DNA of 64,000 bases from Octopus vulgaris (lineage: Eukaryota): contig OX597839.1 in assembly GCA_951406725.2 (NCBI GenBank), forward strand, positions 15,686,001-15,750,000, read 5' to 3'. Every line of letters begins with the position of its first letter. The first letter of the stretch is position 1. This document shows, one piece after another, positions 56,510 to 60,368 of the stretch. Under the pieces are notes generated by a model. It saw nothing but the letters and a program-made list of their open reading frames with translations, was not told the DNA's origin and did not search any database. The position numbers were made by a program, and so were the translations under genes.

Positions 56510-59500
56510 TCATGGAGGCTTTCTAGCAACTGCTATTTGGTGCATGAGAGAGTTTGATGCAGCTGCCCTCATCTGCCCCTCCTGCCGTGAAGTTGGTTCA
56601 TCTGGGACACCTGACAGGAAGAGATCCAGCTTTATTTTAAAGACATCTGTATCCACCCCATGCAGGTCTCTCAGGTTCTTCGGGAGGATATTGAAGAGCT
56701 GTGGGCCTCGGAAGCCCAGGCTATCACAGAATCTTGTCCTACATCTTGATGGCAGGTTTGGAGTCCTAGGCACCACGCAGTGGCGCCCAGTTCTGGCATT
56801 TGCGTAACTCTCGATGCCAAAGTTCAGGACACTTCCCTCCAGGATCTTCCAGATGTATATTATGGCATATCTTTCCCGCCTACGCTCCAGGGAATATAAT
56901 TTTAATCTCTTGAGTCTTTCCCAGTAGCTTACATTCTGCATAGAGGCTATCTTCTTTGTGTAGCTTCGTTGGATCGCCTCAAGTTCTGTGATCAACTTGA
57001 CACTGGATGGTGACCATAGCTGAGAGCAATAGTCAAAGTGGCTTAGGACAAGTGTCTTCCAGAGGACCATCATGGTTTCTTGTTCTCTTGTTCTAAAGGT
57101 TCTAAGAATCCATCCAGCCAGCCGTCTACATTTCATTGTCAGTTTAGCAACATGTACATGAAAGGTCGCGTCATCACTCATGTGAATACCCAGGTCACGC
57201 ACTGATTGTGCCTCTGGGATTGCAATCCCTCCGGGTCCAGTGTATTCATTGGGTATTGCATTCAGTTTTGCATGCTGATAGTATAAAGCTTGAAACTTTC
57301 CAGCATTGAACTGCATGCTATTCTTTTCAGCCCACTTGTATATTTCGTCCAGCTCACATTGCAGGTGTTTAGTGTCCTCAGGGTTCTGTATTGCCTGTGA
57401 AACTTTTGTATCATCTGCATAACTTGTGATCGTGGCTCTCTGCGTGGCTGAGGGCATGTCTGAGAGGGCCATTATGAACAGTAGTGGTCCCAGAACAGTG
57501 CCCTGCGGAACACCGCTCACTATTTGTGTGTTAATGGAGGTGGCCCCATTGGCTACTACCACCTGACTTCTATCCTTCAGAAAGTCATGAAGCCATTCTC
57601 CCAGTTTTCCAACTATGTTGAGATCACGCAGTTTGTGACATATCATTCCATGATCGACTTTATCAAAGGCCTTTGCAAAGTCGAGATATATCACTTCCAC
57701 ATTTGAGTGGTTGAGCAGCCGTTTCAGCACCCAGTCATAGTGTTGTAGGAGCTGAGTTAAACAGCTTCTCCCTGGTCGGAAACCATGTTGGGTGTCGGGC
57801 AGCGAGTCATTCTCTTCAAGGAAGGTGATCAGCTTCCTTCTGACTATTCGTTCCATGACCTTGCTGATGTGTGAGGTCAGAGAGATAGGTCTATAGTTCT
57901 TGGCTTCCGCTCTGCTACCTCCTTTATGAATGGGGCATATTTTACCTTCCTTCAGTTTTCCTGGAAGTTTGCCAGCTGCAAGGAAGCTCTGAAAGAGGAA
58001 CTGCAGTGGTCTTGCTAGGACTCTCTTACATGCTTTTAGGAGGATTGCCGGGATTCCATCGGGGCCAGTAGCTGAGTCTGTTTTCATTTCATCTATAGCC
58101 TTGGTTACATCGTCTTCCTTTATATCGATGTAATCTATCGTCGCCGCCTCTGATTTTATATCTGCAGTGGTAAAAAGTCAGTTGGATTGGTGATTTGGAG
58201 ATGCCCAAGGGGTGGAGTGAAAACACTCTTGAATTGCTCATTCAGTATTTCACTTACCCTCATTGGTTTTCCTGTAAGTGTGCCATCCTTTTCGAGGAGT
58301 GGCCCTATTCTACAGTGCACTGTAGCTGTTTCTTTGGCATACCTGTAGAAAGCTCTGGGGTTAGATTTTATGTTTTCTATAGCCCAGGCTTCTTTGTCTG
58401 CTCTTTCTTTTTCATGGGAGAGTTGCAGACATTTTTCGATTTCCAACAGTTTTATTTTTAGGCGGGACTTTTCACTGCTTTCAATCTGTTTGTTTAGGCG
58501 ATTTGAAAATTTCGTACGCCGTCTCATTAAAATTTTCCTCTCTCTGGGGATTTTGTTCTTGTGTACAGTGGCCTTTCTCTCTGGGACACATTTGTAGCAT
58601 ATGGCTTGCATTACAGACATGAATTGTTGAAGTTTCACGTCGATGTCTGGCGAGGAGAGACATTCAGGCCAGTTTTGTTTGAGGATCTCTTTCTCAATTT
58701 GTTTCCAGTTTGCCTTATGGTAGTTCAAGCTGGAAAGATTTTGAGGGTTTCTTGTAGGCTGCATGTCCGTGCTCTCTTTTGGCCCGTACATGGTCAGCTC
58801 TACCATGTTGTGATCCGAGAGTAGTGTCGGTGTCACTTTCACATTATGGATGAGATCCATGTCATTTGTGAAGCAGAGATCCAGTGTGTTACCTGCCCTG
58901 GTTGGTTGGAGTATTACCTGCTCCATGTACAGGGTGTTGATGAGGTTCAGGAGGGACCTCGCCTGTCCTCGTTCACATCTTGTCATTCCTGGGAGAGAAA
59001 GGCCCTCGGGCCATCTGACATTGGGCAGATTGAAGTCTCCCATAAGAAGCACACCTATGTGTTGTTCTAATGTGGTTAGAATTTCTTCTATTTTTATAAG
59101 GCAGTCTTCGAACTTGCCCACATGGCTTGGGGCATCTGGAGGGCGATATGTAGCACACACAACTACATCAAGTTGCCTAATATGTACAATTAGTGTGTCA
59201 CACACCGAGTTTGAGTATGACAAGAGGACCTGGGGTGTGAGGTCCTCACGGATGTACATAGCAACACCTCCATGACTCCTTTCTTTCCTGTCGGTCCGTA
59301 GTACAGCATACTGTGGTATGTGTAACTCCGCATCTGCTATGTCCGGTTTCAGGTGCGTTTCTGTAAGTGCTATGCATATGGCTTGATTGCATGCAACAAA
59401 GTCTCTCAGGAACGGGATCTTTGTCCTGTTACTGAGTGTTTGCAGTCCTCTGATGTTCAGTAGGAGTATCGAGGTGAGGTGTACGTTGTTGCCGGCGGTG

Positions 59501-59613
59501 TCCATCCTGTGTCTGTTTGCTGTGGTGGTCTGGTATATAGTGGGTAGTCCCACCTGCGGGCTTGGGTTTGATGAAGCCAGGTCAGCTGCTGTACAATCTT
59601 TTGTGCCATGCAC
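56510..59613 (-). CDS. LINE ORF2p (APE + RT), split by a 1-nt deletion in a T-homopolymer at 58172-58176
   Basis: Track ORFs 58156-59613 and 56510-58087 join if one T is added; copy 4 reads TTC TTC ACC ACT GCA GAT at this position. Confidence 0.85.
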
Positions 59614-60368
59614 AAAAAAGATTGTTGCTCAGCAGCTGCTCTTTCGACAACATCATGTTGGCTGTTTGTGGCGCGCACAACATCTGCGTACCTCCGCTTT
59701 GGGGCAGGTGGTGTGTGGTCCATCCCTTTTCTTTGTGTTGATGGTTTGTCCATCTGCCTCGTGTCTCTGTGGCAGGGTCCCCGATGTGCAAAGCGGCAGC
59801 CTGCACCTTCCTTTCCATGCCAGCAGGAACCTCTCAGGTAGAACATACACACCCGTGTGCGCTGTTTGGTTCCATCCTTTGCGGTTCCACTTCTATTTCT
59901 GGTTGTTTCACTCTTTGGTCCTGCTTGAGCTTTTTCTTTTCCTTTAGCTCTTCCAGTCCTTCTTTTAGTTCTTCTTCCTCCCTCTACCTCTTCACCGGGT
60001 TCTCCGTCTCCATGGCCCTTGCTGCCGGTTGAAGAACTTGCACCTGGGTTCACTTCCCGGGCAGGTTTCTCATTCAAAACCTCCTCCCGGGCGTCCACCA
60101 GGTGGGGGTGACTTCTTTCATCGTCTCCATTCTTGCCATCTTTGCCCCGCTCGTTCTCAAAGATGGCATCAAGTGCGCCAATGTGCGACCGTACAAGCGC
60201 ATATGAGCGCACGAATTCCTGTCTCTTTCGCTCCATCTGAGCCGCCGTCCTCTTGTAGCCTCTGCTCTTCAGCGCAGCCGCAATCACCTCGCTAGGGCTA
60301 TCTCCGCCGGCGCACTCCCATGCTCGTACGAATAAATCCAGCTCGTCACGTCTCCATGCTCTGGACAT
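59457..60368 (-). CDS. LINE ORF1p, 303 aa: Myb/SANT-like trihelix N-terminus, basic linker, CCCH zinc finger
   Basis: WRRDELDLFVRAW...IAAALKSRGYKRTAAQMERKRQEFVRSY; CMFYLRGSCWHGKEGAGCRFAH. Confidence 0.8.
   Translation of the reverse strand: MSRAWRRDELDLFVRAWECAGGDSPSEVIAAALKSRGYKRTAAQMERKRQEFVRSYALVRSHIGALDAIFENERGKDGKNGDDERSHPHLVDAREEVLNEKPAREVNPGASSSTGSKGHGDGEPGEEVEGGRRTKRRTGRAKGKEKAQAGPKSETTRNRSGTAKDGTKQRTRVCMFYLRGSCWHGKEGAGCRFAHRGPCHRDTRQMDKPSTQRKGMDHTPPAPKRRYADVVRATNSQHDVVERAAAEQQSFLCMAQKIVQQLTWLHQTQARRWDYPLYTRPPQQTDTGWTPPATTYTSPRYSY

Follow-up and report, generated by a model that had tools for sequence, protein, structure and literature searches.

The first open reading frame (ORF1) of CR1 and L2 elements, which are long interspersed nuclear elements (LINEs), encodes a modular protein (ORF1p) and lies upstream of the frame for an APE endonuclease (EN) and a reverse transcriptase (RT); its products have been sorted into types I-V (Khazina and Weichenrieder; Metcalfe and Casane 2014). 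Table 1 of PMC4120745, covering 448 Jockey-superfamily elements, lists RRM, CCHC, PHD, Tnp22, esterase, coiled-coil and zinc finger/leucine zipper modules only, the text available mentions none of CCCH, Myb, SANT or helix-turn-helix, and PHD reader modules stand at the ORF1 N-terminus in several CR1/L2 subgroups. Among other retrotransposons without long terminal repeats, a Myb-type domain is used for target recognition in R2 and proposed for it in TRAS, according to the parts of those sources available, and a helix-turn-helix match (HTH_1) has a precedent in the ORF1 of a Zepp-like L1 from Coccomyxa (Ivancevic 2016, PMC5203782, main text). Here we describe a CR1-type LINE of about 4.0 kb (about 56418-60430) in a stretch of 64,000 nucleotides of the Octopus vulgaris genome (contig OX597839.1, positions 15,686,001 to 15,750,000; hereafter the window). 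Its ORF1 joins a predicted Myb/SANT-like domain to a CCCH zinc finger and has no RRM, which is a new ORF1 architecture, found family-wide, in a known LINE clade.

The octopus ORF1 thus shares with the CR1/L2 types its modular build and its place upstream of the APE-RT frame, but none of RRM, CCHC, PHD or esterase was detected in it. In contrast to R2 and TRAS, where the Myb-type domain is part of the RT-bearing protein of site-specific elements, the octopus domain is carried by a separate ORF1p beside a CCCH finger, while the Zepp-like case concerns a LysR-type helix-turn-helix of an algal L1. Neither Myb nor CCCH is mentioned for ORF1 in the accessible text of PMC13343379 (a 2026 survey of the CR1 group), PMC5203782, PMC11203168 (gastropods) or PMC13282606 (O. 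vulgaris repeats). The combination of the two is undescribed in the literature searched, a scope which lies outside Repbase, Dfam and subscription journals, so that a prior annotation there is possible. The exchange of ORF1 modules is an established phenomenon, which makes the finding less surprising. Nearly all modules described so far for ORF1p outside mammalian L1 bind RNA, lipids or histones; a domain of 76 residues with a predicted dsDNA-binding fold offers a small, testable protein with which to ask whether ORF1p can choose insertion sites.

ORF1 is open without stops over 303 codons, and its ATG is preceded by an in-frame stop 10 codons upstream. The N-terminal pattern on which the first-pass annotation had based a Myb/SANT-like motif is complete (W5, E9, F13, W17, I29-A30, L33, G37-Y38, R40-T41, Q44, K48, F52 and Y56), and the C-x7-C-x8-C-x3-H finger, YAD(V/I)VR and AAAEQ motifs that it reported were recovered in each of the three window copies that have an ORF1. 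The structure predicted for full-length ORF1p has a disordered linker (22 Lys and Arg against 17 Asp and Glu in residues 76-170) and a small finger, and residues 227-273 are modelled as a single helix. This C-terminal helix of 47 residues matches no Pfam family, and its prediction as a homotrimer scored 0.02. No RRM, CCHC, PHD or esterase appeared among the Pfam matches of ORF1 up to E=10, and in the predicted model, which consists of helices and the small finger only, no segment is large enough for an RRM or an esterase. The features by which ORF1 types I-IV are recognised (RRM with CCHC; the L1-type coiled coil-RRM-C-terminal domain; PHD; esterase) were thus not detected in the octopus protein.

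The N-terminal domain was examined by profile and by structure. Myb_DNA-bind_4 (PF13837) is the commonest Pfam match in the family, found in 6 of 21 members at E<=1; it matched the whole of ORF1p at 16.6 bits (E=0.01) and the N-terminal domain alone at 20.6 bits (E=6e-4). AlphaFold2, run with the alignment, gave a confident four-helix domain (predicted local distance difference test, 89.4) with helices at residues 7-20, 25-35, 42-60 and 63-76. In the Myb/SANT fold it is the third helix that reads DNA. The third predicted helix of ORF1p is basic (R40, Q44, R47, K48, R49, R54 and Y56), and R40, Q44, K48 and Y56, which are at least 90% conserved in the alignment of the domain, map to its start and along it. 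The first five Foldseek ranks were taken by a RAD MYB domain, the SANT domain of DNAJC2, TEAD4, GT-1 and again TEAD4, and VIA-align, searching 48,161 chains, returned SANT (Z 7.3), TEAD4 (7.2), RAD (7.1), LUX (6.6), ARR1 (6.5), GT-1 (6.5) and PHR2 (6.4), with template modelling (TM) scores of up to 0.64 among the best neighbours.

Several observations weigh against this assignment. Both Myb_DNA-bind_4 scores fall below the Pfam gathering cut-off of 27 bits; the Foldseek E values were 0.6-1, with nothing at E<=0.001; all Z scores are below 8, a range in which, by the warning of VIA-align, the likeness may amount to a widespread arrangement of helices; searched as a profile, the domain had no match among PDB sequences at E<=10; and its neighbours in Myb/SANT clusters of the ESM Atlas reached only 0.79-0.83, which is under 0.9 and makes them leads only (whole ORF1p gave no usable match there). 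The net charge of residues 1-75 is just +3. W5 is conserved in 13 of 16 sequences and W17 in 15 of 18, helices 2 and 3 having no conserved Trp; by the Myb consensus, the first of the three core tryptophans alone appears to be retained. Since the sequence and structure lines agree while each is weak alone, the domain is predicted to be a divergent Myb/SANT-like helix-turn-helix. The expectation of a Myb/SANT profile or structural match was thus borne out in the predicted fold and in best neighbours that are mostly Myb/SANT, and fell short in the Pfam score and in Z scores of 6.4-7.3.

The more specific identification as a GT-1 trihelix was not supported. The best Pfam match of the octopus domain is the family of GT-1, three helices and a fourth are predicted for it, and it aligns with GT-1 at a TM score of 0.59, but sequence identity to GT-1 is only 12-14%, and the domain is no closer to GT-1 than to SANT, RAD or TEA. 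Because the scores of SANT, RAD-type MYB, TEA and GARP domains equal or exceed that of GT-1 (Z 6.5 against a best of 7.3, a tie within 1), GT-1 is not singled out, and because the Myb_DNA-bind_4 score lies under the cut-off we describe the domain as divergent Myb/SANT-like rather than as GT-1. Myb-like proteins of PIF/Harbinger elements may be related to it, and the family may have acquired the domain long ago from a host gene or a Harbinger-like element.

Within the window the N-terminus is present in only one of the three ORF1 copies, the other two beginning at TA tracts downstream of the domain. A phmmer search of 1.84 billion representative proteins with ORF1 returned 30 matches, 20 of which aligned as having the N-terminal domain, at 29-55% identity; the other ten comprised C-terminal fragments, two proteins that reach only the end of the domain (P0002 and P0025), two unrelated CCCH proteins and one chimeric gene model. 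A word-based protein search with ORF1 gave one match and its profile version two. Five homologs (P0003, P0004, P0005, P0007 and P0013) cover the region from the N-terminal domain to the finger in one ORF, the finger of P0007 being degenerate. P0013, from O. vulgaris, is identical to window copy A at 47 of 55 positions (85%), and P0006, from Octopus sinensis, to copy B at 24 of 31 (77%). Since both homologs carry the N-terminal domain, all three subfamilies of the window would have it when full length. In addition, a 940-nt contig of public run X4 spans 59594-60430 with 4 differing letters and joins the N-terminal domain to the finger. Contigs of varied likeness, 4,880 in run X1 and 3,679 in run X9, cover a 1.5-kb stretch of this family, which is high-copy; contig depth declines toward the 5' end, a trend too coarse to rank the parts. 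None of the listed runs is recorded as RNA, although X3 and X4 may be. All eight species-named homologs come from O. vulgaris or O. sinensis.

In homologs covering both regions, identity to P0001 was 31-58% over the N-terminal domain and 7-21% over the linker. Set against this, many homologs were found through the N-terminal domain itself and the linker aligns poorly, so the apparent conservation of the domain is inflated. By sequence comparison the N-terminal domain is nonetheless a feature of the family and not an accident of one copy: its presence in other full-length copies, which the first-pass annotation had left to be checked, is seen in 20 homologs that include relatives of both truncated subfamilies of the window.

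Of 12 sequences spanning the CCCH finger, 9 keep its four ligands, and all nine have a Phe two residues before the His. The Pfam zf-CCCH profile matched ORF1p at 16.8 bits, below its cut-off of 20.5. Fingers of Muscleblind, PARP12/ZAP and Torus gave the best PDB and Pfam matches, and the closest solved relatives are the muscleblind fingers (E 2e-4 to 0.01). Muscleblind fingers bind RNA, as CCCH fingers generally do, and in host proteins they usually occur in tandem. The octopus ORF1 differs from these relatives in having a single finger, with a second spacer of 8 residues. From its MBNL/PARP12-like similarity and the general behaviour of CCCH fingers, RNA binding by this finger is likely.

The element lies between two TA tracts. 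Its ORF2 matches Exo_endo_phos_2 (E=2.8e-12) followed by RVT_1 (E=1.3e-30) in Pfam; in the focal copy its frame breaks near 58165. The 5' untranslated region (UTR) is about 60-90 nt long. Short tandem repeats at the 3' end in place of poly(A), together with frequent 5' truncation, are hallmarks of CR1. Each of the three 3' ends found here finishes in a short tandem unit, and the other copies are 5'-truncated. The RT is near-identical to that of O. sinensis CR1 clusters such as O.sinensis_135, _104, _114 and _14 (Martelossi et al. 2023, PMC10294476), with about 3 differences in about 220 residues from O.sinensis_135 by eye. A six-residue RT motif recurs in 16 sequences of the RT alignment of that study (supplement 23), 11 of them listed, all O. 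sinensis clusters, and 6 of these 11 are labelled Jockey superfamily, CR1 clade, in Table S7 of the material available. The element is therefore, at the RT level, a known octopus CR1 family, and by this proxy of near-identity to published clusters it is assigned as a CR1-type LINE. Affiliation with the Proto2/RTE group and with the unclassified octopus clade of the I group in PMC10294476 had been considered; both were dropped on the CR1 labels and the RT near-identity. That study classifies elements by RT; its accessible main text mentions ORF1 once, and no description of ORF1 domains was found there or in its supplements as searched. A metagenome scan with the endonuclease found no locus, a scan with the RT found eight distant loci (26-39% identity), none with a match to the ORF1 profile, and a scan of a viral collection for element loci found nothing. 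The features are collected in Table 1.

Table 1. Features of the CR1-type element and its relatives, in window coordinates.
Feature	Position	Strand	Basis or remark
ORF1, intact, 303 residues	59457..60368	-	translation
N-terminal Myb/SANT-like domain, residues 1-76, predicted	60141..60368	-	profile and structure prediction
Linker, charged, poorly conserved, predicted disordered, residues 77-170	59859..60140	-	
CCCH zinc finger C-x7-C-x8-C-x3-H, residues 174-195	59784..59849	-	
Long conserved C-terminal helix, residues 227-273, YADVVR...AAAEQ...LTW	59550..59690	-	predicted model
ORF2 5' part, APE endonuclease	58156..59505	-	ATG 59505 inside the end of ORF1, -1 frame
ORF2 3' part, reverse transcriptase	56510..58177	-	Pfam and RT comparison
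5' UTR, short	60369..60456	-	at the junction its first bases recur three times, set among TA runs
3' UTR, motif common to three copies, short tandem tail	56417..56509	-	
TA-rich tract at element 5' end	60457..61505	.	
TA-rich tract at element 3' end	56208..56417	.	
Copy A, 5'-truncated relative, starts just before the CCCH finger	41178..44630	+	
Copy B, 5'-truncated relative, starts in the ORF1 linker	51290..53220	+	

With a probability of about one in two, we consider that ORF1p packages the RNA of the element and that its Myb/SANT-like domain attaches the resulting particle to DNA or chromatin with little demand on sequence. ORF1p would coat the element RNA through the finger and the basic linker, and the Myb/SANT-like domain, whose basic third helix would suit nucleic-acid binding, would anchor the RNA particle to DNA or chromatin. 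By analogy, the N-terminal domain would serve as a nuclear or chromatin anchor, as has been proposed for PHD fingers in the ORF1 of other CR1 elements. The choice and nicking of the site would fall to ORF2p; its endonuclease and the pairing of the 3' tail would be the main sources of the exact nick position and of the TA bias. In the accessible parts of the respective sources, the PHD of CR1 ORF1 has been proposed as a general targeting module (PMC4120745) and the ORF1 of HeT-A directs telomere targeting (PMC5537684).

The first-pass annotation had gone further, with ORF1p as a possible targeting factor between element RNA and AT-rich target DNA. In the form that can be weighed here, the Myb/SANT-like domain would read (TA)n specifically while the finger holds the RNA, steering an abundant LINE into TA microsatellites. 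TA tracts make up 28.5% of the window, and all four of its elements (A, B together with D, C and E) abut such tracts at every visible end; only one of three copies of an unrelated repeat resembling short interspersed nuclear elements (SINEs; 2090-2248, 3251-3405 and 47883-48030) lies in a tract, that one in a TA tract of 6.6 kb. A basic, conserved third helix would fit this role, and according to the available text of the sources a Myb domain reads target DNA in R2 (PMC12503042) and has been proposed to do likewise in TRAS (PMC5537684). However, those Myb domains belong to the RT-bearing protein and not to ORF1p. The four elements, moreover, are clustered in one 25-kb stretch and are therefore not independent, which qualifies a naive p of about 0.007-0.017; insertion may have preceded the growth of the tracts; and pairing of the AT/TA ends of the 3' tails with a TA target could occur without any part played by ORF1. 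The TA association fits a preference, in a sample that is small and clustered and beside tracts that may be younger than the insertions; the bias could equally stem from the endonuclease, from pairing of the 3' tail or from tracts that grew later, no observation tying it to ORF1p, and TA-specific targeting by ORF1p is unproven. We regard it as unlikely. CR1 has been recently active in O. vulgaris, with 787 insertions averaging about 4.1 kb (our arithmetic from Table 1 of PMC13282606, the part used here), the same length as the element, so that targeting, if true, would bear on the growth of both the genome and its TA tracts.

Equally doubtful, in our estimate, is that the N-terminal domain is a Myb/SANT fold turned to the binding of RNA or of protein (in self-assembly, or with ORF2p or a host factor), ORF1p being an RNA chaperone that never touches target DNA. 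The best VIA-align match is after all the SANT domain of a chaperone, DNAJC2, and spliceosomal Myb chains are among the matches, including Cdc5, which is described with two nucleic-acid-binding surfaces. Since ORF1 has no RRM, a second RNA-binding module would be useful to it, and the canonical tryptophans, judged by the Myb consensus, seem partly lost. Yet the conserved surface residues R40, Q44, R47, K48, K/R49 and R54 cluster on the predicted recognition helix, as a helix-turn-helix that reads DNA would lead one to expect, and the leading structural matches include many DNA-binding domains.

It is improbable, and clearly more so than either of these, that the N-terminal domain binds the 5' region or flank of its own element and regulates transcription rather than integration. 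The fold does resemble the DNA-binding domains of transcription factors, and so short a 5' UTR leaves little room for sites of host factors, but only one full-length 5' end is readable, and no conserved binding site came to light, though no search was aimed at one. The weakest alternative, that the focal copy alone carries the N-terminus, as a stray fragment (perhaps of PIF/Harbinger origin) or a chance helical match, could appeal to its occurrence in a single window copy and to the sub-threshold Pfam score, but is largely refuted by the homologs described above, by the relatives of both truncated subfamilies and by the independent contig that bridges N-terminal domain and finger, and we give it almost no weight.

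The end of ORF1 and the start of ORF2 overlap (59457-59628 (-), and at the corresponding place in copies A and B), the conserved Trp of the ORF1 'GW' motif coinciding with the ORF2 start codon. The start codon of ORF2 is ATG in copies B and C and GTG in copy A, and the same variant occurs in contigs at 59505. In all three ORF1 copies a slippery-like heptamer lies at a conserved Phe upstream of the ORF2 start, with the ORF2 frame open onward. It is a post hoc lead: that the -1 frame stays open between AAAEQ and the start of ORF2 is within chance (null probabilities 0.59, 0.71 and 0.21, with a product of about 0.09), and no clear stimulatory structure was seen downstream of the site. An occasional -1 frameshift might fuse the ORF1 modules to the EN-RT protein and so give, by convergence, a targeting enzyme like that of R2, although we think this has little chance of being correct; the word-based search gave no match among proteins of 651-2000 residues, which is weak evidence against fused forms.

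The 3' UTRs share a motif with a predicted hairpin (56435-56512 (-), 44560-44635 (+) and 54385-54456 (-)), and for two of the three another hairpin, whose stem differs in sequence, is also predicted. Compared with shuffled sequences the hairpins were not significant (z -0.7 to -1.4), and the shared hairpin is a candidate recognition signal for the RT.

Matches of copies A or B to ORF1 in tblastn begin at residue 173. Copy B (51290-53220 (+)) and copy D (54380-56207 (-)) overlap at the EN-RT linker by 35 nt that are identical in the two. They are likely to be a single element that a TA tract has divided and whose 3' half lies inverted, flanked by two TA tracts that are self-complementary; the inversion may reflect recombination or an assembly error. 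The window also contains very long, strand-biased TA-type tracts with strong GC skew at 16591-24313 (7.7 kb) and 44634-51289 (6.7 kb).

Two observations concern host genes. The gene model P0011, which we take to be lipin-like by our own reading, ends in 66 residues that are 59% identical to the ORF1 linker, a tail that is due either to read-through of the gene model into an element or to exonisation. Exons of a host D-glucuronyl C5-epimerase lie at 29678-30769 (-) (Pfam E 6e-65) and, by eye, at 38533-39060 (-), and the CR1 cluster is situated 5' of these exons on the strand of the gene, perhaps in an intron.

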